Part shown: positions 19,599-63,481 of the stretch, in pieces
How the letters are laid out: each line of letters begins with the position of its first letter
Position numbering within the stretch: the stretch's first letter is position 1
Source of the DNA: a virus
Taxonomy: Duplodnaviria > Heunggongvirae > Uroviricota > Caudoviricetes
DNA length: 64,000 nucleotides
IMG/VR virus record: IMGVR_UViG_3300007072_000340
Coordinates: 30,216-94,215 of that record
Direction: 5' to 3' (one strand)
Made by a program: the position numbers and the translations under genes
The notes under the pieces: generated by a model
Seen by the model: the letters and a program-made list of their open reading frames with translations, nothing else
Told to the model about the DNA's origin: nothing
Databases searched by the model: none

Positions 19599-19993
19599 TG
19601 CTCCACTCCCTCGAACTCGATTTCGACGACCTGCGACTCGCCGCGCGGGAGCGGTGCAATCGCCGGGGCCGCCCGGTCGGACGTGTCAAACTCGAACGGG
19701 TTGTTCACGAAGTTGCCGATCCAGACTCGCCCGTTGTGGTCGGTGACGCGAATCTTGGAGGCGAAGTAGGACCGGAAGAAGGCCCGGACTTCCAGGCCCT
19801 TATTGCGCGTGAGCTTGAAGGTCCACCTCAGCTTCCGCCTGGCGTTGCGGCGCTTGACGTAGGTGTAGCGCGTGCCGTCCATCGCCAGCTTCCGTGTCAC
19901 GGTGGCCAGCAGCCCCTCCTGGTCGCTGAACTGTGGGTTGGGGAGCAGCGAGGTGGTCTGGATCGCCGGGTGGGGTGCCTCAAACGTGAACAT
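19595..19993 (-). CDS. Hypothetical tail-associated protein
   Basis: Start taken at MFTFEAPHP; sits between tail genes. Confidence 0.4.
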   Translation of the reverse strand: MFTFEAPHPAIQTTSLLPNPQFSDQEGLLATVTRKLAMDGTRYTYVKRRNARRKLRWTFKLTRNKGLEVRAFFRSYFASKIRVTDHNGRVWIGNFVNNPFEFDTSDRAAPAIAPLPRGESQVVEIEFEGVEQ

Positions 19994-19995
19994 CG

Positions 19996-22452
19996 CTACG
20001 GCTCCCAGGTGGCGGGTTCGCACTCAAGCTCGAAGCTAATCGTGAAGCCGCTGCGGTCGTCCTGCACGGTGGGCTCGGCCGGGTTCATAATCACGCCCTT
20101 CCAGTAGAATCCCTCCCAATCCACGAACCCCACCTCCAGCCCGAGGTGGCCTTCCACGAAGTCCAGGTACGCCTGGACCTGCTTCCGGCTCAGGCCCTTG
20201 ATGGTGAGCACCTGGGTCTCGACCTTCGGCCAAATGGGATCGGCGAAGACGACCAGCGTGCCGCCCCGCGTCTCACGGCTGATGCGGTTGAATTGCAGCC
20301 GATCCTTGTTGCCGAACTCGGGGTTCCGCAGGTCCACGTGCTCGGTCGGGTGCGACACGGGGTAGACCAGCCGGCAATTGCCGATCCCTGATAAGGGCGT
20401 CGGGCAGGTCGCCGAGGGCGGGGTCGGCGCACCAGGAACGCCCTCCCCAACGAAGGGGTGGTACTGGTGCAGGACATCCGCCGAAACCAGCACGAACGCA
20501 ACGGCCTGCCCGAGGTTCAGCGAGTCGGATACCGCCAACGTGGCCCGGCTGATGACCACCGTGGCCGCATGGGCAAGCGCCAGGGTGCTGGAGACAACCT
20601 TGGAGGCGACGACCTCGGCCGCCTGCACAAGCGAAAGGCTGTCTGCCGCCTGCTGAGCGGTGCGGAAAAACGGCAACTGGGCTACGACGTTGCTGTCGGT
20701 CAGGCTCAGGACATCCGTCGCCTCGCAGGCGATGGCGTCCGCGTGAATCACGACGCCCAGCGCCCGATCCGACAGCGACAGCACGCTCCGCGCTCCATAG
20801 GGCGCGCCATGGACCACCGCCACGTCGGCCCGGTCCTGGAGGCCGACGTAGTATGGAACCAATTGGCCTGTGACGGGATCGAAGTTGTAGTGAAGCTCCT
20901 GGAGGGTGCCGCCCGCCGAGCCGATCTCCACCCCGGAACGGGCCTTGTCCGTCAGGTGCAGCGTATTTGCCGCCGAGACCTGCTTGACGAAGCCGACCGT
21001 GGCCCGGTGCGACAGGCCGATGAGATCGTCGTGGGCCGCCAGGCGGGTATTTGTGGCGTCCGCCGAGTGATTCAGCATCAGCGTGCTCGACGCGCGGCGG
21101 ATGTTGTCCACCAGCGCCTCGTGCGACAGGCTGAGGGTATCCACCACCAGCTTCGCCACGCTGGCGGTTGCCTGGTGCGTCAGCGACAGCGCGGCAACGG
21201 CGCTCCGCGACCGCACTGCCGATTTCACGGCCATGTGCGTCAATGCGAGCGTGTCTGCGCGCCGACGAGTGAAAACCCAGTTGGACTCGGCCTGATGGGT
21301 CAAGGCCAGGTCGTCGTGAGCCAGCCGGATAACCGACGCCTCCGCCACATCGGTCAAGGTCAAGGTGTGCGTACCGACCTTGCACAGGTCGCCGACTGCC
21401 GTTTGGCCCAGTGCCAAGGTATCTGCGGCGGGGCGCAGATAGTCCACCTTGACCGTCGCCTGCTCGACCAGGGCCAGCGTCTCCTGGGCGACGGGCCGGG
21501 CGTAGACCACCAGGACGCTCGCCTCGTGGATCGGCGTCAAGGTGTCGAAGCCGCGCCGCAGCAGGTCCACCTGCGCCAGATGCGTCAGCGACAGCGATTG
21601 CTGGACCGGCTTGATGTGCTCGGCCACCGCCTCGTCCACGACCTCCAGCACGTCGATGCTATGGACCCGTTTCGCATAGGCGACCGTGGCCTCTTCGGTG
21701 ACGCTCAGAGTATCTACGGCCAGCCGGTCGAACACGGTCACTTGAGACGCCTCGTGCGCCACATCCACCATATCCACGACGGGCTTGATTACGTCGCCGG
21801 TCGCCACGTGCGACAACGACAACGTAGTCACCACCGGCCGGATGCAATCTCCTCCGGCCTCGTCGCTCAGCACAAGCGACTGCTCCGCCGAGACCTGGTA
21901 GATTTTCCCGCCCGTGGCCTCGTCGCTCAGCGCCAGGGTATGCTCGGCGACGACCTCGCGGACCAGGTTGCGCTCGGCCAGGTGCGCAATCGCAAGGGTG
22001 CTCGTGCTGCCGACGTTGATTGCGACCTGGGCCGTGTCCGCACTGTGCGTCAAGGCCAAGGTGTGGGCCGCGCTCAGACTATAGACACCCTGCGGGTTGC
22101 CTAGGACTTCAACGACCTGATGCTGGACGCGGGCGCTGCCGCCCGCGGGCGCGTTGCCCGCAATCTCGACGAACTGCTGGATGACGTGCTTAGCGGTCGT
22201 CTTCTCCGCGAGAACGGCCACTGCCTGGCGGGTGACGCGCAACCCGGAGGGCGGCGGGTCGCCAAGCACGGCCACGCACTGGCGGGTGACTTGTGCGGGG
22301 CCGGCGGACGAAAGCACTTCCACGTACTGCCGGCTGACGCGCAACTTCGAGTCGCCCGATGCGAGCACCTCAACGTACTGCCGAGTGACCCGCGCTTTGC
22401 CGTCTCCGGTGCCCAGCACGTCGGCATACTGTCGTGTGACTCGCAGTGCCAT
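19996..22452 (-). CDS. Tail protein with N-terminal tandem RVTRQYVEVL repeats and internal L(S/T)LTH repeats
   Basis: About five N-terminal ~17-aa repeats (LRVTRQYADVLGTGDGKA, RVTRQYVEVLASGDSKL...) and about 20 degenerate ~13-aa repeats; C-terminal ~150 aa globular domain. Confidence 0.6.
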   Translation of the reverse strand: MALRVTRQYADVLGTGDGKARVTRQYVEVLASGDSKLRVSRQYVEVLSSAGPAQVTRQCVAVLGDPPPSGLRVTRQAVAVLAEKTTAKHVIQQFVEIAGNAPAGGSARVQHQVVEVLGNPQGVYSLSAAHTLALTHSADTAQVAINVGSTSTLAIAHLAERNLVREVVAEHTLALSDEATGGKIYQVSAEQSLVLSDEAGGDCIRPVVTTLSLSHVATGDVIKPVVDMVDVAHEASQVTVFDRLAVDTLSVTEEATVAYAKRVHSIDVLEVVDEAVAEHIKPVQQSLSLTHLAQVDLLRRGFDTLTPIHEASVLVVYARPVAQETLALVEQATVKVDYLRPAADTLALGQTAVGDLCKVGTHTLTLTDVAEASVIRLAHDDLALTHQAESNWVFTRRRADTLALTHMAVKSAVRSRSAVAALSLTHQATASVAKLVVDTLSLSHEALVDNIRRASSTLMLNHSADATNTRLAAHDDLIGLSHRATVGFVKQVSAANTLHLTDKARSGVEIGSAGGTLQELHYNFDPVTGQLVPYYVGLQDRADVAVVHGAPYGARSVLSLSDRALGVVIHADAIACEATDVLSLTDSNVVAQLPFFRTAQQAADSLSLVQAAEVVASKVVSSTLALAHAATVVISRATLAVSDSLNLGQAVAFVLVSADVLHQYHPFVGEGVPGAPTPPSATCPTPLSGIGNCRLVYPVSHPTEHVDLRNPEFGNKDRLQFNRISRETRGGTLVVFADPIWPKVETQVLTIKGLSRKQVQAYLDFVEGHLGLEVGFVDWEGFYWKGVIMNPAEPTVQDDRSGFTISFELECEPATWEP

Positions 22453-50722: not shown

Positions 50723-51157
50723 CCTTCACCTTCCTTCCTACCGCTTGTTGCGGCAGTCTCCGTCTCATTTCCGGTCATGTCAGGCAAAGCCGTTGGGCGG
50801 CGGAACCAGTGGCGATCACACGGAGGAATGCGGAATGTCGCTTGAGCATCGACGTAGCCTTGGGCGGCACGGCAGCTTCCATCGGGCTAGTCGTCGCCGG
50901 GGGCAAGCCCCGGCGGAAGTCACCCGACATCCGCTGCCACTTGCCGAAGGTCCGACGAAGCGGTATCCACGCACTGCATGGCACTCGGCCGTGCTGCCAC
51001 CCGCGATGGCGTGCCGAGCTTGCGCCGATTCCTCCGGGAGTCGCCCGATGGGCGGACTGCCCGGATTCCTCAACGCCGCCGGTCGTTCATTCGCCGGTGG
51101 CCGATCACACATTGGCCCGCCTCCCTCGGGCCGCTTGGAGCAGGGTTTCAGCCTGCG

Positions 51158-51230
51158 GTCTTGGTACGGGAGTCGAACCCGCGACAGCCAGATTCACGGT
51201 CTGGTGCTCTATCCGCTGAGCTAACCTGGT
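51158..51230 (-). tRNA. tRNA-like (anticodon GUG, His-like), probable pseudogene
   Basis: T-arm GCGGG/TTCGACT/CCCGT and D-arm present, anticodon loop CCGTGAA (C33); acceptor stem pairs poorly. Confidence 0.3.
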
Positions 51231-51339
51231 TGACACGACCTTCGGTCAGAACCCATTGACGGAACAAACGCCGCCAACCGCCTCATGTGAGGACGGGGCA
51301 ACGTGCGCCGTTGGCCTGGCCGTATCATTGCTTATGAAG

Positions 51340-51410
51340 AGACGCCGGTGGGAATCGAACCCACTTGAACCGGGTTGCGGCCGGTCGCCTTGCCATCTGG
51401 CTCCAGCGTC
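51340..51410 (-). tRNA. tRNA-Cys(GCA)
   Basis: Acceptor GACGCUG/CGGCGUC, T-loop TTCGATT, anticodon loop CCGCAAC (C33). Confidence 0.65.
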
Positions 51411-51413
51411 AAG

Positions 51414-51486
51414 CGTCCTCGCCAGGAGTCGAGCCTGGTCTTCGACCTTCGCAAGGTCGCGTGCGAATCCCCCACACTCCGAGGAC
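51414..51486 (-). tRNA. tRNA-Arg(GCG)
   Basis: Perfect 7-bp acceptor GTCCTCG/CGAGGAC; anticodon loop TTGCGAA; T-loop CTCGACT (C54). Confidence 0.55.
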
Positions 51487-51499
51487 CTTCGTTACTCAG

Positions 51500-51571
51500 C
51501 GCCCCGCCGAGGAATTGAACCCCGTCTTGCAGTTCCGAAGACTGCCGTGCTGTCCGGCACACTCGCAGGGC
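51500..51571 (-). tRNA. tRNA-Arg(UCG)
   Basis: Anticodon arm ACTGC/TTCGGAA/GCAGT... read as codon CGA on + strand; T-loop TTCAATT; acceptor with one G-U. Confidence 0.55.
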
Positions 51572-51583
51572 TTTTGCGTCGAG

Positions 51584-51676
51584 TATCCCGACCAGGAATC
51601 GAACCCGGGCACCGCCGCGCAGCGGTGGTCGCTGGAGCTTCGGAGGCTCCGATGCGATCCGCTACACCATCGGGAC
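51584..51676 (-). tRNA. tRNA-Arg(CCG)-like with 18-nt palindromic hairpin (caccgc cgcgca gcggtg) in the variable region
   Basis: T-arm CCGGG/TTCGATT/CCTGG, anticodon arm GGAGC-TTCGGAG-GCTCC on + strand (codon CGG); 93 nt total. Confidence 0.4.
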
Positions 51677-51762
51677 ATGAACCAAGGAGCCGACGACTGG
51701 ACTTGCACCAGCATCAAGCGGTTTACAGGACCGCTGCCTTTCTGTTCGGCCATGTCGGCAAG

Positions 51763-51832
51763 CACGAGCGCGAGGAGTCGAACCCCGTGCGGCAGGGTTG
51801 GAGTCTGCCTGCTCTCCCAAGAGCACGCTCGT
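51763..51832 (-). tRNA. tRNA-Trp(CCA)
   Basis: + strand anticodon loop gttggag (codon TGG, U33); acceptor ACGAGCG/CGCTCGT; T-arm CGGGG/TTCGACT/CCTCG. Confidence 0.5.
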
Positions 51833-51876
51833 GTATTGCCCCCGGCCACGAGGACCGGGGGCTTCTGGCGTAACGA

Positions 51877-52473
51877 CTACTTCTGCAACTCCACGTTCCA
51901 GTAGGCTTCGCTGATGAACTTGGACCAGCTTGCGATCCGCATGGTGTGGTCCGCGTACAGCGGCTTCCACGTGGGCCGGACGGGCTGCTTGCGCACGCGC
52001 ATCCGGGCCTGCTCCGGCGTCCGGTCAGCCTTCCGCTTGTTGCAGGCCATGCAAGCCAGCACGCAGTTTTCCCAACACGACACGCCACCTTGTGACCGCG
52101 GCAGCACGTGGTCGATCGTCAACTCCTCACTGCCCGGCTGCGCGCCGCAGTATTGGCAGGTGTAATGGTCCCGCTTGAACACGTTGCGACGGCTGAAGGT
52201 CACCGCGCCCAGCGGAAGCCGATCGTAGCCGGTCAATGCCACGACCTCCGGCACCCGCAGCCGGAACCGAACTGCCTGGACGAACGCCTCGCCATCCTTC
52301 GGCTTCAGCTTCGACCAGTCCGCCCAGGTGTAAAGCTGGAAGTCTTCGGGGTCCACCACGCGGGCCGACTCGTTCCAGAGCAGCACCAACGCACGCTCCA
52401 CGGTCGCTACGTGGACCGGCTGCCAGTTGCGGTTCAGGACCAGCGTCGGTTGCTCAAGGACCTTGGTGACCAT
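51877..52473 (-). CDS. HNH endonuclease embedded in the tRNA array
   Basis: HNH core CQYCGAQPGSEELTIDHVLPRSQGGVSCWENCVLACMACNKRKADR; flanked by tRNA-Trp (downstream) and tRNA-His (upstream). Confidence 0.8.
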   Translation of the reverse strand: MVTKVLEQPTLVLNRNWQPVHVATVERALVLLWNESARVVDPEDFQLYTWADWSKLKPKDGEAFVQAVRFRLRVPEVVALTGYDRLPLGAVTFSRRNVFKRDHYTCQYCGAQPGSEELTIDHVLPRSQGGVSCWENCVLACMACNKRKADRTPEQARMRVRKQPVRPTWKPLYADHTMRIASWSKFISEAYWNVELQK

Positions 52474-52492
52474 TGTGATCTCCGTCAGTAAG

Positions 52493-52567
52493 GGTGTCCG
52501 GGGAGAGTCGAACTCCCACCCTCTGGTTCACAGCCAGCCGTGCAGTGACCGCTACACCACGGACACC
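52493..52567 (-). tRNA. tRNA-His(GUG)
   Basis: Anticodon loop CTGTGAA, extra 5' G(-1) opposite C73 (His hallmark), acceptor GTGTCCG/CGGACAC. Confidence 0.7.
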
Positions 52568-52585
52568 ATGCGATTGTTGTCAGCA

Positions 52586-52655
52586 CCCCGACCGGGACTC
52601 GAAGTGCGGAACACCTCGGTAGAAACGAGGCATGATGTCCATTTCACCATCGGGG
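52586..52655 (-). tRNA. tRNA-Arg(UCU)-like, irregular T-arm
   Basis: Clean anticodon arm cctcg-gtagaaa-cgagg (codon AGA) and acceptor ccccgac/atcgggg, but T-stem does not pair. Confidence 0.35.
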
Positions 52656-52659
52656 CAAG

Positions 52660-52749
52660 CGGAAGGCATGGGATTTGAACCCACATGACACCTTTCGGCG
52701 TCGCACGGTTTAGCAAACCGGCCCGGCCAACCGTATCCGGCTACCTTCC
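52660..52749 (-). tRNA. tRNA-Ser(GCU)
   Basis: Type II, 90 nt; anticodon loop ttagcaa on + strand (codon AGC); long variable hairpin gacacc-tttc-ggcgtc; G73. Confidence 0.65.
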
Positions 52750-52764
52750 GTAATCACGCATCAG

Positions 52765-52835
52765 TGGACCGACCGGGAATTGAACCCGGATCTCCAGAAT
52801 GCCGTTCTGGTGTCTTCCCCTTGGACCATGAGCCC
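52765..52835 (-). tRNA. tRNA-Ala(GGC)
   Basis: G3:U70 pair present, A73; anticodon loop ACGGCAT (C33); T-arm CCGGG/TTCAATT/CCCGG. Confidence 0.7.
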
Positions 52836-52864
52836 GTTGTCGTTGTAGTGGACCCGACCACCGC

Positions 52865-52940
52865 TTCGCGGCGGTGCCCGGAGTCGAACCCATCGCACCG
52901 ATCTTGCACCCGATCAGTCGCCTCCACGGAACATGCCAGC
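52865..52940 (-). tRNA. tRNA-like element, unresolved (degenerate T-arm)
   Basis: gagtcgaaccc T-loop signature at 52882 but no consistent cloverleaf found by hand. Confidence 0.2.
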
Positions 52941-52951
52941 CCACGAATCGA

Positions 52952-53042
52952 AAGGTCTGTCCGGGAATTGAACCGGGCACCATGCGCAGCATGGTCCTTC
53001 CGCCTTACCGAGGAGGTGTGCTACCGAAACACCTACAGACCC
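52952..53042 (-). tRNA. tRNA-like element with palindromic insertion accatgc-gca-gcatggt, unresolved identity
   Basis: aattgaa T-loop signature, D-arm gtg-tgctaccgaaa-cac, acceptor aggtctg/cagaccc; anticodon not assignable. Confidence 0.25.
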
Positions 53043-53047
53043 TCAAG

Positions 53048-53120
53048 TGATCCCCGCTGGCATCGAACCAGCACTTTCCTGGTTGTCACCCAGGCGTCTT
53101 TGCCATTGGACCAGGGGATC
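53048..53120 (-). tRNA. tRNA-Val(GAC)
   Basis: Acceptor GATCCCC/GGGGATC perfect; anticodon loop ttgtcac on + strand (codon GTC); A73. Confidence 0.7.
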
Positions 53121-53127
53121 ATTCCAG

Positions 53128-53201
53128 TGACCGGAGTGGGAGTCGAACCCACAGGCACGAGGCTCTCGACCTCGCCGCTATGCCAGTTTGCGTACCCGGT
53201 C
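53128..53201 (-). tRNA. tRNA with Leu anticodon GAG but short (5-nt) variable loop
   Basis: Anticodon arm cgagg-ctctcga-cctcg (codon CTC, C33), D-arm cgc-tatgccagttt-gcg, A73; 74 nt. Confidence 0.5.
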
Positions 53202-53285
53202 GTGGCGGGTCCGGGGGTCGCACCCGGCGTTCCCGGCTTATGAGGCCGGGCTGAGCACTGGCCCACCCGCAGCATGTTTCCGAGT

Positions 53286-53372
53286 TGCAGGCCCCGGTAT
53301 CGAACCGGGCGCACCGGCCCGACCAACCTTCGGTCGGTGCCCGGAGCCAGTTGGGCACCTGCCGCGCCTGCA
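53286..53372 (-). tRNA. tRNA-like element, unresolved (about 85 nt)
   Basis: Perfect T-arm cccgg-tatcgaa-ccggg and acceptor tgcaggc/gcctgca; internal arms not resolved. Confidence 0.25.
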
Positions 53373-53408
53373 ATTCCTCAATGACCACCCGCGCCTGCAA
53401 TTCCTCAA

Positions 53409-53492
53409 TGACCACGGGGAGAGTCGAACTCCCAATGCCGCAAGGGCACGACGTTCTGACCGTCGCGTGTCTGCCAATTCCACCACATGGTC
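53409..53492 (-). tRNA. tRNA-Leu(CAG)
   Basis: Type II with 15-nt variable arm; anticodon loop ttctgac on + strand (codon CTG); D-arm gtg-tctgccaattc-cac; A73. Confidence 0.7.
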
Positions 53493-53501
53493 ATGCTGCC
53501 T

Positions 53502-53594
53502 GAGTGGCCCGTGCGGGAGTTGAACCCGCCTTTCCGGCTGACCATGCTGCGCATGGTGCCCGGGCCGGCGTCCTGTACCGATAGACGAACGAGC
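53502..53594 (-). tRNA. tRNA-like paralogue of tRNA-Glu(55603) carrying an 18-nt palindromic insertion in the anticodon loop
   Basis: Shares acceptor, T-arm, D-arm (gtc-ctgtaccgata-gac ga acgagcc) with 55603..55675; anticodon stem ccggc/gccgg encloses 25 nt including ccatgc-tgc-gcatgg. Confidence 0.35.
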
Positions 53595-53602
53595 CAGTTG
53601 AG

Positions 53603-53686
53603 TGCGCCGGGCAGGAGTTGAACCTGCATAGCCTTTCGGGCTGGCTGCTTTACAGGCAGTTGGGCACGCCGATGCCCAGCCGACGC
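53603..53686 (-). tRNA. tRNA-Tyr(GUA)
   Basis: Type II; variable hairpin agcc-tttcg-ggct; anticodon loop tttacag (codon TAC); A73. Confidence 0.7.
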
Positions 53687-53700
53687 ATGTTGTTCGTGAG

Positions 53701-53774
53701 TGGCGCAGGTGGGACTCGAACCCGCAATCACCAAGGTTTGAGCTTGGCCGCTTTGCCGATTTGCGTACCGCGCC
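53701..53774 (-). tRNA. tRNA with Leu anticodon CAA but short variable loop
   Basis: Anticodon arm ccaag-gtttgag-cttgg (codon TTG, U33); D-arm cgc-tttgccgattt-gcg; A73; 74 nt. Confidence 0.5.
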
Positions 53775-53788
53775 GCCACTGGTCGAAA

Positions 53789-53864
53789 GCGCCCTCGACG
53801 GGATTTGAACCCGCGATCTCCTGCGTGACAGGCAGGCGAGCACTCCAGGCTGCTCCACGAGGAC
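53789..53864 (-). tRNA. tRNA-Asp(GUC)
   Basis: Anticodon arm cctgc-gtgacag-gcagg (codon GAC); T-loop TTCAAAT; G73. Confidence 0.7.
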
Positions 53865-53876
53865 AAACATTTCCAG

Positions 53877-53951
53877 TGGCCCAGGCGGGACTCGAACCCA
53901 CAGCATCCCTGGTTCTAAGCCAAGGTGGTCTGCCAGATTGCCTACGGGGCC
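53877..53951 (-). tRNA. tRNA with Leu anticodon UAG but short variable loop
   Basis: Anticodon arm cctgg-ttctaag-ccaag (codon CTA); D-loop tctgccagatt like 53128 and 53701; A73. Confidence 0.45.
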
Positions 53952-53952
53952 G

Positions 53953-54046
53953 TGCCCAGGGCCGGAGTCGAACCCGAAACCGCCTGCCACCACCGCTACG
54001 CGGCGGTGCCCGAGCCAAGCCGCTCTGCCAATTGGCGTACCTGGGC
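53953..54046 (-). tRNA. tRNA-like element with hairpin caccgc-tacgcg-gcggtg, unresolved
   Basis: D-arm cgc-tctgccaattg-gcg and acceptor gcccagg/cctgggc match the 53128/53701/53877 family; T-stem and anticodon arm irregular. Confidence 0.25.
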
Positions 54047-54053
54047 GATCAAG

Positions 54054-54125
54054 TAGCCCCGGATGGAGTCGAACCATCGTTTCCTGGGTGTGGACCAAGC
54101 GTCGTTGCCGTTGGACCACGGGGCT
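54054..54125 (-). tRNA. tRNA-Val(CAC)
   Basis: Anticodon arm cctgg-gtgtgga-ccaag (codon GTG, C33); D-arm gtc-gttgccgttg-gac as in Val(GAC); A73. Confidence 0.65.
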
Positions 54126-54137
54126 GAGTCGCCAAAG

Positions 54138-54208
54138 TGGAGTCACCGAGAGTCGCACTCGGATTTCCATCTTGCGGAGGTGGCGTCGTCCTGTTGGACC
54201 ATGACCCC
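54138..54208 (-). tRNA. tRNA-Ala(CGC)
   Basis: G3:U70, A73; anticodon loop ttgcgga (codon GCG, C33); T-loop TGCGACT non-canonical. Confidence 0.55.
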
Positions 54209-54214
54209 AAAAGG

Positions 54215-54300
54215 CGGAAGCCGTGGGACTCGAACCCACAAGCGGCTGCTGGCCGCCACCTGTTTTCAAGACAGGCCCCTCATCCGGCCGGATGACTTCC
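54215..54300 (-). tRNA. tRNA-Ser(UGA)
   Basis: Type II; variable hairpin gcggc-tgctg-gccgc; anticodon arm cctgt-tttcaag-acagg (codon TCA); G73. Confidence 0.7.
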
Positions 54301-54309
54301 GTATTGAAG

Positions 54310-54380
54310 CTGCGGAGGCTGGAATCGAACCAACATGAAGACGTTCAGAGCGTCTCATCCTACCGTTAGATGACTCCGCA
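54310..54380 (-). tRNA. tRNA-Gln(CUG)
   Basis: Anticodon arm agacg-ttcagag-cgtct (codon CAG); perfect acceptor tgcggag/ctccgca; G73. Confidence 0.7.
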
Positions 54381-54418
54381 TTGCGTTGCTCATCGAGACA
54401 CCGCCATGTCGTCGCAAG

Positions 54419-54489
54419 TTCGGGGAGGAGGGGTCAAACCTCCGTCTCCTGGTTCAAAGCCAGACGGCCTACCACTAGCCGATCCCCGA
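54419..54489 (-). tRNA. tRNA-Gln(UUG)
   Basis: Anticodon arm cctgg-ttcaaag-ccaga (codon CAA); T-loop TTTGACC atypical. Confidence 0.55.
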
Positions 54490-54490
54490 G

Positions 54491-54562
54491 AGTGCCCTGC
54501 GGGAATCGAACCCGCCTAGCCAGCTTGGAAGGCTGGAGCCTTTGCCGATCGGCCAAGGGCAC
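54491..54562 (-). tRNA. tRNA-Gly(UCC)
   Basis: Fully canonical cloverleaf checked base by base; anticodon loop CTTCCAA; U73. Confidence 0.8.
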
Positions 54563-54567
54563 GAAGG

Positions 54568-54651
54568 CGGAAGGTGAGGGAGTCGAACCCCCAAGGCTCG
54601 TCGCTCGGCCGCTTTCGGGGTGGCTGCCATCGCCAGTTGGCTTGACCTTCC
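54568..54651 (-). tRNA. tRNA-Ser(CGA)
   Basis: Type II; anticodon arm gccgc-tttcggg-gtggc (codon TCG, C33); G73; perfect acceptor ggaaggt/accttcc. Confidence 0.55.
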
Positions 54652-54666
54652 GTTCTCTCCAAAAGG

Positions 54667-54754
54667 CTCCGGCGGCTGGACTCGAACCAGCGGTGGGGCA
54701 AACGCCACGTCGCCTTAACAGGCCGATCCCTGCTACCAACTCGGGTACACCGGA
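54667..54754 (-). tRNA. tRNA with Asn anticodon GUU carrying a 16-nt hairpin in the variable region
   Basis: Anticodon arm tcgcc-ttaacag-gccga (codon AAC); D-arm ccc-tgctaccaactc-ggg; 88 nt. Confidence 0.4.
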
Positions 54755-54762
54755 TCACAAAG

Positions 54763-54836
54763 TCAGGACGGCGGGATTTGAACCCGCGCTCTCGTGCTCC
54801 CGAAGCACGCGGAATACCGGGCTTTCCTACGTCCTG
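54763..54836 (-). tRNA. tRNA-Pro(CGG)
   Basis: Anticodon arm cgtgc-tcccgaa-gcacg (codon CCG); D-arm ggaa-taccgggct-ttcc; A73. Confidence 0.7.
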
Positions 54837-54846
54837 TTAATCAAGA

Positions 54847-54916
54847 GCGCCCAGCGGGAGTTGAACCCGCGCTTCCGCCTCGGCAAGGCGGCAGGCTGCC
54901 GCTACATCATGGGCGC
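54847..54916 (-). tRNA. tRNA-Gly(GCC)
   Basis: Anticodon arm ccgcc-tcggcaa-ggcgg (codon GGC); perfect acceptor; U73. Confidence 0.7.
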
Positions 54917-54949
54917 GATCTCATGTGGGCCGGATTGTCAAAGATCAAG

Positions 54950-55021
54950 AGCACCGGGCGGGACTCGAACCCGCGTCGCCGCATTACGGGTGCGGTGTCC
55001 TTGCCGCTGGACGACCAGTGC
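54950..55021 (-). tRNA. tRNA-Thr(CGU)
   Basis: Anticodon arm ccgca-ttacggg-tgcgg (codon ACG, C33). Confidence 0.6.
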
Positions 55022-55032
55022 GTTTCTCGCAG

Positions 55033-55105
55033 TGGGACCAGAGGAACTTGAACCCTCACCTGGCGGATTAAGAGTCCGCTGTGCTGCCGCTAGCACCTTG
55101 ATCCC
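55033..55105 (-). tRNA. tRNA-Lys(CUU)
   Basis: Anticodon arm gcgga-ttaagag-tccgc (codon AAG); T-loop TTCAAGT; A73. Confidence 0.7.
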
Positions 55106-55121
55106 GTCTTTTGTCCACCAG

Positions 55122-55194
55122 TCGGCGCGGAGGGAGTCGAACCCTCGACCTGACCCTTATAAGAGGTCTGCTCTCACCGCTGAGCTACACGCCA
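55122..55194 (-). tRNA. tRNA-Ile(UAU)
   Basis: Anticodon loop CTTATAA (codon ATA on + strand); D-arm gctc-tcaccgct-gagc; A73. Confidence 0.6.
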
Positions 55195-55199
55195 GCGAG

Positions 55200-55271
55200 T
55201 AGGGCCGGAGGGGATCGAACCCACATCTGCCGGATTAAAAGTCCGGTGTGCTGCCATTACACCACGACCCT
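55200..55271 (-). tRNA. tRNA-Lys(UUU)
   Basis: Anticodon arm ccgga-ttaaaag-tccgg (codon AAA); A73. Confidence 0.7.
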
Positions 55272-55341
55272 GTACTTGGTCGGGCGTATGCGTTTCAACC
55301 GGGTCAACATCGTTTCACTCCTCGTGTTTGTTCGCGCCAAG

Positions 55342-55413
55342 TGGTAGTCCTGAGAATCGAACTCAGCGCCGCGCGGTTATCAGCCGCGTTCGGGCAACCA
55401 GCCCTCGACTACC
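55342..55413 (-). tRNA. tRNA-Ile(GAU)
   Basis: Anticodon arm cgcgg-ttatcag-ccgcg (codon ATC); perfect T-arm ctgag-aatcgaa-ctcag; A73. Confidence 0.65.
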
Positions 55414-55439
55414 TCGTGCCAACGTCGTTGTCGATCCAG

Positions 55440-55512
55440 TCGGGATGGCAGGACTCGAACCTGCGTCTCCGTGCTCCCAAAGCACGTGGGCTCGCCGCTA
55501 CCCTACATCCCG
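55440..55512 (-). tRNA. tRNA-Pro(UGG)
   Basis: Anticodon arm cgtgc-tcccaaa-gcacg (codon CCA); same anticodon stem as Pro(CGG); A73. Confidence 0.7.
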
Positions 55513-55520
55513 CACCTCAG

Positions 55521-55595
55521 TCAGAACGGCCGGATTTGAACCGGCGATCTCCTGCACCCCGAGCAGGCGCGATACCCAGGCTTCGCTACGTTCTG
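55521..55595 (-). tRNA. tRNA-Pro(GGG)
   Basis: Anticodon arm cctgc-accccga-gcagg (codon CCC, C33); perfect acceptor cagaacg/cgttctg; A73. Confidence 0.6.
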
Positions 55596-55602
55596 ATCGC
55601 AG

Positions 55603-55675
55603 TAGCCCGTGCGGGAGTCGAACCCGCCTTTTCGGCTTGAAGGGCCGATGTCCTCAACCGATAGACGAACGAGCC
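55603..55675 (-). tRNA. tRNA-Glu(UUC)
   Basis: Anticodon arm tcggc-ttgaagg-gccga (codon GAA, C33); D-arm gtc-ctcaaccgata-gac. Confidence 0.6.
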
Positions 55676-55734
55676 GCGTCGGCGCGCACCTTCCACGCAG
55701 CCGGAACCCAGGTTGGCGCGCACGCTCAGCGTAG

Positions 55735-55806
55735 TGGGCCGGGAGGTGCTCGAACCCTCGTCTGCTGCTTTTCAGGCCGCCGCTACACCATCTCAGCTAC
55801 CAGCCC
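55735..55806 (-). tRNA. tRNA-Phe(GAA)
   Basis: Anticodon arm gctgc-ttttcag-gccgc (codon TTC); D-arm gct-acaccatctc-agc; first tRNA of the array in transcription order. Confidence 0.55.
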
Positions 55807-56553: not shown

Positions 56554-56910
56554 CTACGGCCTTCGTTTTTCCTTTTCCTGTCGGACTCTTTCGTTTTGTA
56601 GTCGTAGTTCTGTCTCCAAGTCAGCGAGGTACTGCCGCTGGGCGCGATATAACGGATCGACGCGCTGATACGCCACTCCATACACGACCACGGCTACGAA
56701 GACACCAAAGGCCGGATGGCCATGCCAAACGCAAAGCAGCCCGGCAGCCACGGCCGCCAGGATACTCCACGCAACACCTCTATAGTAACCCGCGCGTTCG
56801 CGGGAAGTCATTTGCTCCCGGAGGCACTGCTTCAACTCCGACTTGCTCTCGACGCTGCCGACGCCTCGATAGTAGGCGATCGTCCGCCAGCTTCGATGGG
56901 ACAGTCTCAT
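56554..56910 (-). CDS. Hypothetical membrane protein
   Basis: Two predicted TM helices (WSILAAVAAGLLCVW; FGVFVAVVVYGVAY). Confidence 0.4.
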   Translation of the reverse strand: MRLSHRSWRTIAYYRGVGSVESKSELKQCLREQMTSRERAGYYRGVAWSILAAVAAGLLCVWHGHPAFGVFVAVVVYGVAYQRVDPLYRAQRQYLADLETELRLQNERVRQEKEKRRP

Positions 56911-57251
56911 ACGGCCTCCAACATCGGGTCCAACCGGACGCGAGAGCCATCCTTGAGCCGCACGAAGTTGTACACCTTTGGCAGATAGTGGCCGCTTGCC
57001 AACCGCTCGCCGGTGTACGGGGCCGGTCCCCCGCGCAGGACTGCCCTCCGAGCCTCAGCCGCCTGCTTTGGCGTCAGCAAGGCCGGATCAAATCCCCAGC
57101 GATCCACCGCATCCGCGGCGATCCCCTGGGCCTGCACGGCAGCCCACAAGTCGAGTTGCCGCAGCAGCCAGTCCCGTTCGGCTTGCTTCGCACGGATGTC
57201 GGCGAGTAGCCTCTGAGCGGGAGACATGGCCAATTCTACCTCAGTATTCAT
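56907..57251 (-). CDS. Hypothetical protein
   Basis: 114-aa ORF, stop/start overlap with neighbour. Confidence 0.4.
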   Translation of the reverse strand: MNTEVELAMSPAQRLLADIRAKQAERDWLLRQLDLWAAVQAQGIAADAVDRWGFDPALLTPKQAAEARRAVLRGGPAPYTGERLASGHYLPKVYNFVRLKDGSRVRLDPMLEAV

Positions 57252-57528
57252 CGGGCAGCAAGATGCAGGTCGAAGATCGGTCAGCCTCGGTAATCACCCA
57301 GACTTTCACTCCTTTAGAGGTACGGTATACGCTAAATATGCGGGCACCATCCTTGAGCGCCTGCTCGTTCGCCCCTTCGTCGTCAGGGTGAATGTCTCCC
57401 CACTCGCCGCGGACATGGCGGTTAAGGAAATCGGCCGGCGATTGACCAGCCTCTTCCAGGGCCGCCAGGGCTCCGGGGGTGGCCACGCACTGGCCGAGCG
57501 AAAACAACGGTCGCACAGAATCTACCAT
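57241..57528 (-). CDS. Hypothetical protein
   Basis: Start at MVDSVRPLFS. Confidence 0.35.
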   Translation of the reverse strand: MVDSVRPLFSLGQCVATPGALAALEEAGQSPADFLNRHVRGEWGDIHPDDEGANEQALKDGARIFSVYRTSKGVKVWVITEADRSSTCILLPDEY

Positions 57529-57624
57529 CGTGACACCCCATCTACACAGCGTCAAGCGAGGCTTGCGCCCGCAGGTCACCTCCCATGTGAGGCCGTCTCT
57601 GCGGTCGGACTGCCGCCACCGTAT

Positions 57625-59055
57625 TCAAGCAACGATCTCTACGATGCACTGAATCAAGAAGTTCTGAAAATCCCGGCTCATGTCCGTCGCCCCGGTGACG
57701 TAGTGGGCGACCTCCTCGAAAGCCGTTTGCAGCAGATACTTGTTGACGGCCGTGGCAATATCCTCCTTGAAGCAGACCACGCCTTCGCGGCAGTAGCCCA
57801 TTACTTCGGAGCCAGCCTGCATGATGTCCCGGAAGCAAGCCACAGTCGGCTTCTTCTTGCCTTGCGTCATGTTGATCTGCTGCAACCACGACCAGACAGT
57901 ATCAACCGCCTTGATGGCGGCATCCGTCGCCGGCACAATCTGCTTCCCGTTGCTCTCGTGGCCGTCCAGGACCGAGGCGGCCGTCTTGACGCCACAGCGG
58001 GCGGCAGCCGTAATCCAGGACGCGGCCTTCGTCGGCTTCGGCCGAAAGCCCTTCTTCTCGACGAACTCGGACGTATGGCCCAGGCTGGCGTCACACAGGA
58101 CCGCGTTCGGGCCGGCCGCCAACTCCCACGCTTGCTGCCACGCTTCTTTCTGGGCCGGCTCGGGGTCTGAGTAGGACGCGGCCATGTAGTAGGAGTCAAA
58201 GGTCGCCTCATAGGTCTGCTCCTGGGCGACAAGGCTCTTGAACACTGGGACAAGCTGTTGGGCCGTGGCCTTGCGGAACAGCCGGGCCGCAGCCCCCTTG
58301 ATGTCGTACTCACTCGAATTGCGCGATTCGTCGAGCCGCAATTCGCCGTCGTGGAAGTTGTAGTCGTAGACCGACGCCTCTTCGTCTTCTGCGATCTCGC
58401 GGATCAACACGCCCTCCTTGTAGACCATCGCCGTCCGCTTGCCGCTCAGGTTCCGGTCGGCCTTCGGCAGGAGCGACTCCTTCACCAGCGACGGGTTGCC
58501 GGAGAAATGCAGGAACCGCCGGGGCAGTTCGCCGTAGAACCGCTGGACATCAGGGTTCACCTCGACGAACACGCGCGTGTAGCCGTCCCGCGCCCGCACC
58601 GCCCCGTCCTCGACGATGGCGACACGCAGGTCTTCGCTCCGCAGCGCCGGCAGGAAGTCGCCGTTCTCACGCACCGTCCGGTCGATGGCATTGGCAACGA
58701 ACTCCCGTAGGGCCATTGACAGGTCGGTCCAGTCGATCGCCCCGAAGTCCAGGCACCAACCCATGTCGAGCGTCTTGCTGCTGGTCCCGCCCAGTTTGCA
58801 GACCACGCGCTTGATGCTCTGCGTCACCAGACCGTCGCGGATCGTTTCCTCGCGCGTGGCAAATTCCAGACGGGTCTTGCCGCAGTAGATCAGCAGTTTC
58901 AGTCCCGCGCGGAGCAAGGTGTTGATGGCGTGCTTCGCCCCGCTGCCGAACTGGCCGATGGTGCCGGCCACGCCACAGTCGCGGGTGGTCGAGACGCCGA
59001 GTAGAGTAAAGCCCTCCACGGGGGCGACACCAGGGTTCTGGATGCACAGGAACAT
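57625..59055 (-). CDS. GHKL (Bergerat-fold) ATPase-like protein; candidate type IIB topoisomerase B subunit
   Basis: N-box-like REFVANAIDRTV (ExxxNxxD), weak G1-like AIVEDGAVRARDG; adjacent to a Spo11/TopVI-A-like gene. Confidence 0.35.
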   Translation of the reverse strand: MFLCIQNPGVAPVEGFTLLGVSTTRDCGVAGTIGQFGSGAKHAINTLLRAGLKLLIYCGKTRLEFATREETIRDGLVTQSIKRVVCKLGGTSSKTLDMGWCLDFGAIDWTDLSMALREFVANAIDRTVRENGDFLPALRSEDLRVAIVEDGAVRARDGYTRVFVEVNPDVQRFYGELPRRFLHFSGNPSLVKESLLPKADRNLSGKRTAMVYKEGVLIREIAEDEEASVYDYNFHDGELRLDESRNSSEYDIKGAAARLFRKATAQQLVPVFKSLVAQEQTYEATFDSYYMAASYSDPEPAQKEAWQQAWELAAGPNAVLCDASLGHTSEFVEKKGFRPKPTKAASWITAAARCGVKTAASVLDGHESNGKQIVPATDAAIKAVDTVWSWLQQINMTQGKKKPTVACFRDIMQAGSEVMGYCREGVVCFKEDIATAVNKYLLQTAFEEVAHYVTGATDMSRDFQNFLIQCIVEIVA

Positions 59056-59314
59056 GGCTTGTGTCTCAGGGCTGAAGATCAGTGCTGTCGTTCAACTCTA
59101 TTCAAGCATATCATAGAAGATACGCAAGTCAAGCCGCGGTCATAGATTTTCTTCAGAAGACGTGAAACTACGGCGAGACCGAGGGAGACCACTTGGATTG
59201 TGAGGATTATGACGACGAAGGCGATGGCCTTCTGGCGGAGGGCAAATCCGGCGCGCCTTCCGCGGACAACCAGGGCCGATCGAACGGCGGATGCCCCACG
59301 CACGCCAGGCGAAA

Positions 59315-60187
59315 TCACTCTTGCTCGCCATCGCCGCTCCCATTGCTGCCCAAGAACTCCACGACTGTCTGCCACCGGCGGCTGACGGCGCTCAACTGAT
59401 CGCGGCCGGTCTGCTGACGTTCTAGCGCTTCATGCCAATGGTCCTGGTCGATCCGCGCCTGAACCGCATCGCGGATCAGGTCCGCCATGACTTGCGGCTC
59501 TAAGGCGTCCAACTCCCACGAGTCGTCGCCGAACTGCTCCCGGTATTTCTCGTAGCGCGCATCCGTGGTCTTGGCGGGATTTGGCGGCGGCCCATACTCT
59601 TCAATCTGTTCCCACGTCAAAGCAATCCGGTCGATATTGGCTGTGGAGCCAAACAACTCCAACCGCTCTTGGATGTCGCGGGTCATGTCTAGGCCGGACG
59701 GATCATGGTCGCCCAGGTGAATCACCACCGTGTCCCGCCCCGCTTTCTCGTACCGTTTGAGGCGTTGGGCGGCTTCCCACATCTCCGACTGCGACGTGTA
59801 ACCCTTGCAGGCGCAGTAGGGCACCCGCAACTCGGTGCAGATGCCCTCGATCACGCCTATCAATGCCTCTTTCTCGATCCACACTTCGACGTGGTGGGAC
59901 TGCCCGGCCCATAGGTCCACGGTGTACTGGTCGGCGCACGCGCGGATGATCGAGTGCGGGCTGGCCCACGAGGCGTGCATCTGCAAGTTGCGGGTGCGAT
60001 CCTCAATCGCCAGCCAGTCGATCAAGCCGGCCAGGCGACCGTCGTTGATGATGTCGCCCAGGTGCTTGTAGTTCTTCATCGTGTTCTTCGTGTCCGCCGG
60101 CAGCCCGTGCTTGAGGTTGTAGTCCCGGTCGATCCACAACTCGGGGAGCAAGTCTTTGGCGATGAACTGATAGTACAACTGCCGCAA
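59315..60187 (-). CDS. Topoisomerase VI subunit A / Spo11-like (5Y-CAP catalytic Tyr region + Toprim), N-terminally disrupted
   Basis: LRQLYYQF (cf. Spo11 RDIYY catalytic Tyr), Toprim acidic motifs VEVWIEKEAL and VVIHLGDHDPSGLDM (cf. TDADPHG). ORF begins at TTG immediately after an in-frame TAA; upstream same-frame segment MPCIAYVTKNFRQDTLAIIAKANAVIAEYQR (60298-60206) and a -1 frame segment MADPAKDLL... from 60450. Confidence 0.5.
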   Translation of the reverse strand: MRQLYYQFIAKDLLPELWIDRDYNLKHGLPADTKNTMKNYKHLGDIINDGRLAGLIDWLAIEDRTRNLQMHASWASPHSIIRACADQYTVDLWAGQSHHVEVWIEKEALIGVIEGICTELRVPYCACKGYTSQSEMWEAAQRLKRYEKAGRDTVVIHLGDHDPSGLDMTRDIQERLELFGSTANIDRIALTWEQIEEYGPPPNPAKTTDARYEKYREQFGDDSWELDALEPQVMADLIRDAVQARIDQDHWHEALERQQTGRDQLSAVSRRWQTVVEFLGSNGSGDGEQE

Positions 60188-60202
60188 GGTCAGCTTGAAC
60201 CC

Positions 60203-60450
60203 TTATCGCTGGTACTCGGCAATGACGGCGTTGGCCTTGGCGATGATCGCCAGGGTGTCCTGGCGAAAGTTCTTCGTCACGTAAGCAATGCAGGGCATTG
60301 TCTTGCTGCTCTTACCCAGCAGCATCGAATGTTGCGGTACTCGTCGTGAAGTTCCTTCGCCAAGGGGTCATTCATTTTGCCCCGCAACATTCCATGCAAC
60401 TGCTCCTCCGTGACTCCAGCATCGAGAAGGTCTTTCGCCGGGTCCGCCAT
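60203..60450 (-). pseudogene. N-terminal fragments of the Topo VI-A-like gene, separated by a frameshift and an in-frame TAA
   Basis: ATG 60450 opens MADPAKDLLDAGVTEEQLHGMLRGKMNDPLAKELHDEYRNIRCCW...; a -1 shift gives MPCIAYV...AEYQR; TAA at 60205-60203 lies 6 codons before LRQLYYQ. Confidence 0.4.
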
Positions 60451-60470: not shown

Positions 60471-61271
60471 CTAGCTGCAAGCGGCACAAGCCGGCTGTCG
60501 TTTCGTCACGTTGCCCAGGTACTCCCTGCCGAGATAGCGGTCGATTAGCCGCCAGACCATCATGTGCGTGAACACGCCCCCTTCGGGCCGGCGCTTCGTC
60601 GGCCGTGTCTTGAAACCCTGTTCGTTGAGCCAGGTCACGATCTTGTCGAGCGTCTGGCCTTCTTCTCGCCGGCGCTTGATCTCGGGCACGAGAACCTGCT
60701 GATACCGCTCCCTTGCCTTCTGGGCATTGGCGGCCGAACCCAGCGGTTGCGCCTTCCTGACGCCTCGCAGGTGCTCGCGTCCGTCCCAATGACCGGGCCG
60801 CGCCGAACCGAGCAGCTTGCCCCTGGCCTTCGTTGCCGCCAAGGCCGCCTTCGTGCGGGCCGCGATCTGGCGGGCCTCGTGTTCCGCTACGGCCGCGAGG
60901 ACTTGAATGTTGAACCGGTCGGCATACGGGTTGTCGCAGCACACGAAGTCCAATTCCGCGTGCAGCAGGCAATTCAGGAAGTAGCAGTTGCGGGCTAGCC
61001 GGTCCAACTTGGCGACCACCAACGTCGAATTGGTCAGCCGGGCATGGTGAATCGCCTCTTGCAGCTTCGGCCGCGCCGATTTCTTGCCGGTTTCGATCTC
61101 GATGTACTCAGCAATCACGGTCGCGCCGTGGGCGAGCACCAGTTGGCGGACCATTTCCTTCTGGGCTTCCAGGCCCAGGCCGCTCTTGCCTTGCTTCTTC
61201 GTGCTCACGCGGTAGTAGGCGACGATCTTGATGATCTTCTCGATGCTGATGCTCACGGTGGCTGTCTCCAA
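60471..61271 (-). CDS. Small serine recombinase (resolvase/invertase family)
   Basis: Catalytic region VAYYRVSTKKQGKSGLGLEAQ, LVVAKLDRLARN, C-terminal HTH-like region. Confidence 0.75.
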   Translation of the reverse strand: METATVSISIEKIIKIVAYYRVSTKKQGKSGLGLEAQKEMVRQLVLAHGATVIAEYIEIETGKKSARPKLQEAIHHARLTNSTLVVAKLDRLARNCYFLNCLLHAELDFVCCDNPYADRFNIQVLAAVAEHEARQIAARTKAALAATKARGKLLGSARPGHWDGREHLRGVRKAQPLGSAANAQKARERYQQVLVPEIKRRREEGQTLDKIVTWLNEQGFKTRPTKRRPEGGVFTHMMVWRLIDRYLGREYLGNVTKRQPACAACS

Positions 61272-62737: not shown

Positions 62738-63481
62738 TCACGACGGCACCGCCACCTTGCTGCCCTGGGTCCGCTTCCTGATGTTGCCGAGCCATTCCTT
62801 TCCCAGGTAGCGGCCGATCAGCCGCCACACGGCCGTCTGGGTGAAGGGCTTGCCGGCCGTCGTAACCTTGCCTTGCTGGTTCAGCCACTCGACGATCTCC
62901 GGCAGGGTGTCGCCCCGTTCCCGCCGGGCCTTGATCTCCGGCATCAAGTAGGCATAGGTGTTTTTCGTCCGCTCCTTCTTCTTTCGGGCCGCTGCGGCAA
63001 TCGCCAGCTTCGTCCCCCGCAGGTGCTCCCGGCCCTTCCAGTGATTCGGGTTCGCCGATGCGAGTTTCACGCCCCGCGCCTTCGCCGCGGCCAACGCGGT
63101 CTTGGCCCGGTCACTGACTTTGCGGGTTTCTTCCTCAGCCACGTTCGCAATGATATGGATGGTCGTCCGATTGATGTCGTGGTTGTCCAGGCACACGAAG
63201 TCCACCTGGCTCTCCAACAGCAGCCGAGTTGCCGGGACGTTTCGAGCCAGCCGGCCCAGGTGGCAAACGACTAACGTAGCCTCAGACCGGAGCGCATGTT
63301 CGACGGCCTTGGGGAACTCCGTTCGCCGGTTGTGCTTTCCCTCCTTCTCCGTGTACGTGGCGATGATCCGTCCGTTGTTGTAGCTGACGAACCGCTCGGC
63401 TTCTTCTCGCTGCGCCGCAAGGTCAACGTGCAAACGGCTTTTCTTCGGCCAGGACCGGTAGTAGACGATGTAGCGTTTCAT
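62738..63481 (-). CDS. Small serine recombinase, paralogue of 60471..61271
   Basis: IVYYRSWPKKS...LVVCHLGRLARN...FVCLDNHD...NHWKGREHLRG parallels the first recombinase. Confidence 0.65.
   Translation of the reverse strand: MKRYIVYYRSWPKKSRLHVDLAAQREEAERFVSYNNGRIIATYTEKEGKHNRRTEFPKAVEHALRSEATLVVCHLGRLARNVPATRLLLESQVDFVCLDNHDINRTTIHIIANVAEEETRKVSDRAKTALAAAKARGVKLASANPNHWKGREHLRGTKLAIAAAARKKKERTKNTYAYLMPEIKARRERGDTLPEIVEWLNQQGKVTTAGKPFTQTAVWRLIGRYLGKEWLGNIRKRTQGSKVAVPS

Follow-up and report, generated by a model that had tools for sequence, protein, structure and literature searches.

A 64,000-nucleotide (nt) stretch of the genome of a tailed virus (Caudoviricetes; IMG/VR record IMGVR_UViG_3300007072_000340, positions 30,216 to 94,215; hereafter the window) was found to carry a gene of the Mini-A family, a published viral family of Top6A/Spo11-like proteins, which is interrupted by an in-frame TAA at codon 32. 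The window gene is a defective newcomer to this known family and stands beside an unrelated, uncharacterised phage gene for a 476-amino-acid (aa) protein, referred to here as B. The Mini-A copy is probably a very recent pseudogene, derived from an accessory gene that is dispensable. The parts of the Mini-A gene, in window coordinates, are as follows.

59315-60298, minus strand: Mini-A gene (Top6A/Spo11-like, 5Y-CAP and Toprim), 327 codons from ATG 60298 to TGA 59317-59315, interrupted at codon 32
60203-60205, minus strand: premature TAA, codon 32 of Mini-A, placed by homologue alignment; Gln in relatives
60185-60187, minus strand: TTG, codon of Leu38, where the mechanically called 290-aa reading frame starts, 15 nt past the TAA; possible re-initiation site
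60170-60184, minus strand: R39-Q-L-Y42-Y43, the 5Y-CAP catalytic-tyrosine motif (RxxYY), placed by alignment and a coordinate check
59873-59875, minus strand: Toprim Glu142 in VEVWIEKE, at the end of model strand 135-141
59693-59710, minus strand: Toprim D197-H-D199-P-S-G202, the DxDxxG metal-binding motif, placed by alignment
59501-59518, minus strand: WELDAL, the T2BI box and published Mini-A signature, within SWELDAL at residues 260-266

A sequence-only reading of this DNA had described a 290-aa open reading frame (ORF) at 59315-60187 with LRQLYYQF, VEVWIEKEAL and VVIHLGDHDPSGLDM, a 476-aa ORF at 57625-59055 with REFVANAIDR, and an in-frame TAA (60205-60203) that follows MPCIAYV...AEYQR and lies six codons ahead of TTG 60187, and all of these were present as described. 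It had further proposed a frameshifted N-terminus for the first gene, beginning at ATG 60450, and this part was not upheld. With Mini-A read through the TAA as the query, the homologue search returned at least 8000 protein clusters, and the best matches were 303-332 aa long and covered 97-100% of the query. Every full-length sequence among the 17 aligned homologues starts with MPxI(A/C)YV, which corresponds to ATG 60298; this ATG was therefore taken as the true start, with no upstream extension needed and no frameshift. Read in the same frame, the gene gives MPCIAYVTKNFRQDTLAIIAKANAVIAEYQR, then the TAA, then GFKLTLRQLYYQF. The ORF from ATG 60450 was rejected as the Mini-A N-terminus, since the homologues start downstream of it, and is listed as a gene call of its own.

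60277-60450, minus strand: ORF of 57 aa in another frame, separate from Mini-A, the start of which it overlaps by 22 nt

A single weak relative of this ORF was found (in locus L007), and it had no PHROG match. One Mini-A homologue with an apparent N-terminal truncation (P0040) proved to contain a scaffold gap of Ns.

On its defining sequence motifs, the interrupted gene is filed as an ordinary member of the Mini-A family. Takahashi et al. (2019, NAR Genom Bioinform, PMC7671362) described this family as a group of viral Top6A homologues of about 300 aa without the N-terminal half of 5Y-CAP, marked by RxxY/FY, a Toprim Glu with DxDxxG, and xWELDAL as the diagnostic box. No Bergerat-fold partner was found for Mini-A in that study, according to which a non-canonical Mini-B might exist. 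The window gene shares the family's length (about 300-330 aa; 327 codons when read through, with the Tyr at position 43), the RxxYY motif with Arg four residues before the Tyr, the Toprim Glu, DxDxxG and xWELDAL. Like the other members it is encoded by a tailed phage, has no N-terminal half of 5Y-CAP, and has no canonical B subunit nearby. It differs from them in the premature TAA, which leaves it without an intact translatable ORF, and in its origin in a lineage of GC-rich phages, probably of Planctomycetota, as judged from the names of the metagenome-assembled-genome contigs that hold homologues. In a diverse alignment of 24 members reaching down to 23% identity, R39 and Y43 were invariant, as were E142, G196, D197, D199, P200 and G202 of the Toprim part and E262 of the T2BI box, in which L263-L266 were nearly invariant. 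The closest intact homologue (P0002, 89% identical) matched PHROG 6247, "DNA topoisomerase", with an E-value of 1.8e-110, and its AlphaFold2 model (predicted local distance difference test score 76.5) showed a Toprim beta-alpha-beta topology in which beta1 is followed by the Glu and beta3 by DxD. The earlier description of the gene as phage-encoded, Top6A/Spo11-like with 5Y-CAP and Toprim parts, and TAA-interrupted was supported.

In direct tests the link to Top6A gained little support. Profile searches of the PDB from two Mini-A alignments were empty or gave an unrelated chain at an E-value of 0.22, and a Foldseek search of the AlphaFold2 model against the PDB returned generic Rossmann/Toprim-like matches and no Top6A. 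As the direct profile and fold tests were non-significant, the link to Top6A rests on the motifs, the topology, weak co-linear matches and the published analysis. Pfam gave no match for the window protein. The co-linear matches were seen in a family member, Xylella phage Salvo gp33, in which sub-threshold Pfam matches fell to TP6A_N at residues 15-54 (E-value 0.034) and to the DUF2399/JetD Toprim at residues 113-198 (E-value 0.0089); TOP6A-Spo11_Toprim also gave a weak sub-threshold match (E-value 0.092).

The sequence-only reading had named the gene a Topo VI/VIII-like A subunit; its WELDAL box places it instead in the Mini-A subfamily, apart from both enzymes. With Topo VI (Top6A2-Top6B2) and Spo11 it shares the 5Y-CAP tyrosine, the Toprim Mg2+ ligands and the R-x-x-x-Y spacing (R99/Y103 in M. 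jannaschii, PMC7671362), but it is about 100 residues shorter, is without the Top6B-binding N-terminus, carries WELDAL in place of the T2BI sequence of Topo VI, and gave non-significant HMMER and Foldseek similarity. Topo VIII, which comprises plasmid-borne fused or split B-A enzymes, is likewise encoded by mobile elements and belongs to the type IIB family, but it has RVELNAM, an Arg three residues past the Tyr and a Bergerat-fold/transducer moiety, whereas Mini-A has WELDAL, Y43-Q-F-I without the Arg, and no fused or conserved ATPase. The JetD/MksG nuclease subunits of Wadjet/MksBEFG (Pfam DUF2399) have a Top6A-like Toprim as well, in keeping with the weak DUF2399 match of Salvo gp33; that match is sub-threshold, however, no SMC or kleisin partner genes lie at Mini-A, and PADLOC gave no match.

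The Mini-A subfamily is common. Besides the at least 8000 protein clusters, the subfamily was found at more than 555 IMG/VR loci and, by tblastn, in 85 GenBank phage genomes, among them Xylella phages Salvo and Sano, Salmonella phage SPN19, Pseudomonas phage PaMx25 and Listeria phage LWP01, with many of the homologues annotated "DNA topoisomerase". In the literature searched, neither later studies of Mini-A function or of a Mini-B partner nor biochemical data for any Mini-A were found. One homologue of 415 aa (P0076) contains an internal tandem duplication of about 110 residues across the Toprim core, with VCGRWDVPFFACKGY...HLGDHDPSG...WELDALEPAFIDT occurring twice; the duplication could be real or an assembly artefact.

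The stop itself was then set against the homologues. Codon 32 corresponds to Gln in 17 of 17 aligned homologues, and most of the relatives read as DNA carry CAA or CAG at this position, so that a single C-to-T change (CAA to TAA) explains the stop. The N-terminal part was uninterrupted and contained in one ORF at all 80 other IMG/VR Mini-A loci. The same TAA was present in three assemblies (SPAdes ERZ511474, MEGAHIT ERZ27245800 and Logan SRR5580902), which match the window at 100% identity across as much as 10.7 kb. Private substitutions at otherwise invariant columns numbered one in the window gene and 0-3 in intact relatives; the one change is F162C, at codon 162 (59813-59815), where the window has Cys (VPYC) and all 46 compared relatives have Phe (VPYF). 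Relaxed constraint was considered for the window gene and was unseen, the single private change lying inside the range of the intact relatives. As there is no excess of private changes, either the nonsense mutation is recent or the gene is still constrained.

Two of these observations tell against decay. The three assemblies are probably not independent and may derive from one read set, and a gene that is otherwise perfectly conserved would also fit a gene that still functions, or a base-calling error. On such grounds the TAA could stem from an error of sequencing or consensus calling, or from an allele present in a minority only, with Mini-A itself intact (CAA) and functional, and the k-mer coverage of the SPAdes contig, as given in its name, was about 6. 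Three different assemblers nevertheless called the same base, and consensus substitution errors are rare. An intact allele of the strain was absent from the protein collection among the matches listed, in which the next best match was the 89% identical homologue, and in this lineage Mini-A is often lost or decayed, as described below. An erroneous or minority TAA was accordingly considered unlikely, and a recent nonsense mutation was retained as the preferred explanation.

Whether TAA might be read as sense was assessed from the rest of the window. ARAGORN predicted 36 tRNAs, none with an anticodon reading UAA, in agreement with the earlier search by hand for a suppressor. The major capsid and tape-measure genes, among others, end in TAA, and the PHROG match of the major capsid reaches the last residue. 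When TAA was treated as sense, ORFs were extended or merged no more than when the other stops were so treated. With TAA acting as a normal terminator, no suppressor tRNA and no unusual extension of ORFs, general or programmed reassignment is unsupported, and a need for recoding, one of the options raised by the sequence-only reading, was excluded as a genome-wide property. A screen for further interrupted genes based on GC content at third codon positions was too noisy; a same-frame TAA pair that it flagged at 34325 was two separate genes.

A local bypass of the stop would take one of two forms, namely low-level read-through of UAA by a near-cognate phage tRNA-Gln(UUG), which would restore the Gln, or re-initiation at TTG38, which would give a 290-aa or two-piece product. 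Both tRNA-Gln(TTG) and tRNA-Gln(CTG) are present in the phage tRNA array, TTG38 lies just past the stop and may be a usable start codon, an AAGGG overlaps the stop, and the gene has decayed no further. An independent Mini-A homologue (P0064, 70% identical; locus L160, 2897-3010, from ENA ERZ25039473 contig_115221) moreover has a 1-nt deletion at codon 31, one codon away from the window lesion, and its ORF was called from a TTG at Leu36 with a length of 292 aa. That the two lesions adjoin could be a hint of a non-random site, which would speak against simple decay of the window gene. The L160 lesion could also have arisen by coincidence or as an indel error of long reads, or could mark a site where lesions are tolerated, and it was treated as a coincidence; the contig comes from a "contig_N"-style, probably long-read assembly, in which indels are common, and ascertainment is biased, since an ORF stays long enough to be ranked high in the homologue search only when the lesion is N-terminal. 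Bypass is further opposed by the normal terminating role of TAA in this phage and by the sense Gln codon of the aligned homologues, and on the structural model a truncated product would be without helix 13-31 and without CAP-domain residues 33-37. TAA followed by G is not known to be a leaky context, which also counts against read-through. Bypass by either route was judged quite improbable, and the reading of the gene as a recent pseudogene was kept.

The tRNA genes form a dense array on the minus strand (51157-55806), in which nearly all amino acids are covered and which includes two tRNA-His genes and several Arg, Leu and Pro isoacceptors, an unusual set for a phage of about 77-89 kb.

In the nearest relatives by B (L118, 93% identical; L097, L098, L102 and L094, 86-88%), the gene next upstream of B is that of a serine recombinase, and Mini-A is missing from the interval. 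A further relative (L103, 9636-9740) retains a remnant of 36 aa from the Mini-A C-terminus (E-value 8.7e-7) between serine recombinase and B, and in L111 (6230-7239) Mini-A is split by a frameshift, with profile positions 1-169 and 157-300 in two frames. The remnant and the frameshift point to repeated decay of Mini-A within the phage lineage, and because the gene has been lost repeatedly, a recent pseudogene is the most likely reading of the window copy. Mini-A is dispensable in this lineage, which argues against an essential role in replication. For a family described in 2019 and widely annotated "DNA topoisomerase" in phages, a nonsense-mutated copy in an accessory slot amounts to ordinary gene decay.

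In the explanation favoured here, Mini-A is a Top6A/Spo11-like protein of about 327 aa with Y43 as the 5Y-CAP tyrosine, together with R39, and with E142 and D197xD199 as the Toprim metal site. If it behaves like Topo VI, it would form a dimer and cleave DNA via 5'-phosphotyrosyl bonds. The change of CAA to TAA at codon 32 ends translation after 31 residues, presumably abolishing function, and at best a truncated product from TTG38 would be made. The gene occupies a variable accessory-gene slot from which relatives have repeatedly lost it, and the 476-aa gene downstream is its neighbour through synteny, without being the B subunit of a topoisomerase.

Side by side with these results, the interval between recombinase and B was seen to be a variable cargo slot that holds Mini-A, methyltransferase or ATPase-like genes, or nothing. 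A mobile cassette or invertible segment around Mini-A was also considered and rejected, the repeats found there being short, imperfect and at chance level.

The features of the spacer and of the downstream gene are listed here, as the relation between the two genes was examined next.

59056-59314, minus strand: spacer between Mini-A and B, 259 nt, with one sigma-70-like site inside
57625-59055, minus strand: gene of the 476-aa B protein (PHROG 8203 family, YuA gp29-like), with an N-terminal part of about 240 aa that is weakly GHKL-like and a C-terminal part of about 100 aa that is zincin-like
58933-58965, minus strand: GTIGQFGSGAK in B, a Gly-rich loop followed by a helix, G2-box-like but N-terminal to the N-box
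58678-58707, minus strand: REFVANAIDR in B, with E118, N122 and D125 as ExxxNxxD (GHKL N-box-like), placed by a 48-sequence alignment
57703-57717, minus strand: EEVAH in B, on a helix of the zincin-like domain (EExxH against HExxH of zincins)

The two genes had been proposed to encode the A and B subunits of a type IIB topoisomerase, and the distribution of each was used to assess this. From the Mini-A side, B was found within 8 kb at seven of the 80 IMG/VR loci, and all seven were the closest relatives of the window; a widened B profile run over the same 80 loci found no further B genes. From the B side, Mini-A lay within 10 kb at 15 of 66 B loci, none of them among those where B was less than 50% identical. 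Three genomes that carry B showed no Mini-A in the stretches searched, which were 50 kb of the 58.7 kb of YuA, 50 kb of the 69 kb of Brevundimonas phage MaInes, and 41 kb surrounding B in a 595-kb phage. Where both genes occur they may be separated by 0.45-6.6 kb of unrelated genes, those seen in relatives being genes for an ATPase-like protein and a methyltransferase and an ORF on the opposite strand. No A-B fusions were found among the Mini-A and B homologues, including the top 150 B representatives, and the co-inherited Top6B partner (GHKL-H2TH-transducer) that accompanies Topo VI was absent. Given co-occurrence at 15 of 66 and 7 of 80 loci and the lack of fusions, the claim of a type IIB pair is unsupported; the genes occur independently, and B is not Top6B-like. 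Their adjacency is synteny in the variable accessory-gene slot between serine recombinase and B, and not the mark of a two-subunit enzyme.

A divergent phage type IIB topoisomerase, with B as an undiscovered Mini-B, would account for the adjacency of the genes on the same strand in the window, for their proximity (0.5-6.6 kb) in the 15 related loci, and for the invariant ExxxNxxD, the Gly-rich loop and the weak GHKL fold match of B, and a non-canonical Mini-B is allowed for in PMC7671362. Set against the distribution just described, such an enzyme was regarded as very improbable, and for this candidate the co-occurrence analysis answers the question of a Mini-B partner in the negative. The bolder proposal that B works with Mini-A, either as a non-canonical Mini-B ATPase or through its SprT/Wss1-like zincin domain as a protease that removes covalent Mini-A-DNA adducts, with the codon-32 stop overcome through Gln read-through or through re-initiation, was held to be extremely improbable. 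Synteny of unrelated genes was preferred to both.

What B itself may be was approached through its own relatives, of which 870 were found in an indexed search and 2556 clusters at 50% identity in an exhaustive search. All of the top 150 representatives are stand-alone proteins of 254-552 aa, most of them 430-550 aa. B matches PHROG 8203 (function unknown), and among its GenBank relatives are YuA gp29-like proteins from phages of Pseudomonas, Bordetella and Brevundimonas, labelled HATPase, ATP-binding protein or metallopeptidase in a few records. With the PHROG 8203/YuA gp29-like proteins B shares the full-length architecture and the motifs GxFGxGxK, RE(F/L)xxNxxD and EExxH...D, with no difference of substance. 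An alignment of 48 sequences with 25-62% identity showed E118/N122/D125 and G34/F36/G39 to be invariant and E447-E448-x-x-H451 nearly so. B had no significant match in Pfam, NCBIfam or PADLOC or to PDB profiles, all sequence-profile matches being sub-threshold.

The earlier suggestion of a GHKL N-box-like motif in B was borne out in part. ExxxNxxD is invariant and sits on helix 112-131, as expected of an N-box, and the fold match to GHKL is weak but present; the resemblance does not extend to Top6B. In GHKL ATPases (MORC, Hsp90/TRAP1, MutL, GyrB/ParE/Topo II) a DxGxG G1 box follows the second strand, whereas in B strand 159-165 is followed by EVNPD, and the sole Gly-rich motif, the G2-like GxxGxFGxGxK of residues 31-41, precedes the N-box. 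Zincin peptidases (BepA, minigluzincins, HtpX, SprT/Wss1) have HExxH on the active-site helix where the C-terminal domain of B has EExxH. The Gly-rich loop lies ahead of the N-box, an order suggestive of a GHKL-like nucleotide site that is permuted or non-canonical and is joined to a variant of the zincin domain, and the N-terminal part probably binds nucleotide. B is an independent phage gene whose stand-alone product is GHKL-like in the N-terminal part and zincin-like in the C-terminal domain, and it is not a Top6B homologue. With strictly invariant ExxxNxxD and Gly-rich motifs and an EExxH zincin-like domain, this large, uncharacterised family merits biochemistry in its own right.

Across the B family the motifs follow one order, with GxFGxGxK first, then W..(A)xRE(F/L)xxNxxD, and then the C-terminal EExxH...D.SRD.Q. 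A full-length B homologue (38% identical) is encoded by the 595-kb uncultured phage (L086, LR756511.1) at 19959-21413, with no Mini-A within 20 kb on each side. The sigma-70-like site in the Mini-A/B spacer (TTGACT-16-TATGCT, 59132-59105) may hint at a promoter of its own for B, against an expectation by chance of 0.7 such sites for the one found.

The gene upstream of Mini-A encodes the recombinase that borders the slot.

60471-61271, minus strand: serine recombinase gene (Pfam Resolvase, E-value 2.7e-27)

A second serine recombinase gene (about 62738-63481, minus strand) stands in tandem with it upstream of B, the two being about 40-47% identical to each other, and the tandem arrangement is kept in relatives (L118, L097, L098, L102 and L096). 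Elsewhere the window contains the phage genes for terminase, portal, major capsid and tape-measure proteins. Downstream of B, on the minus strand, lie genes for a 114-aa product (56907-57251), which matches PHROG 27068 (function unknown), and for a 112-aa product (57241-57579), which has no family match and is up to 88% identical in relatives; both genes are conserved in related phage loci.

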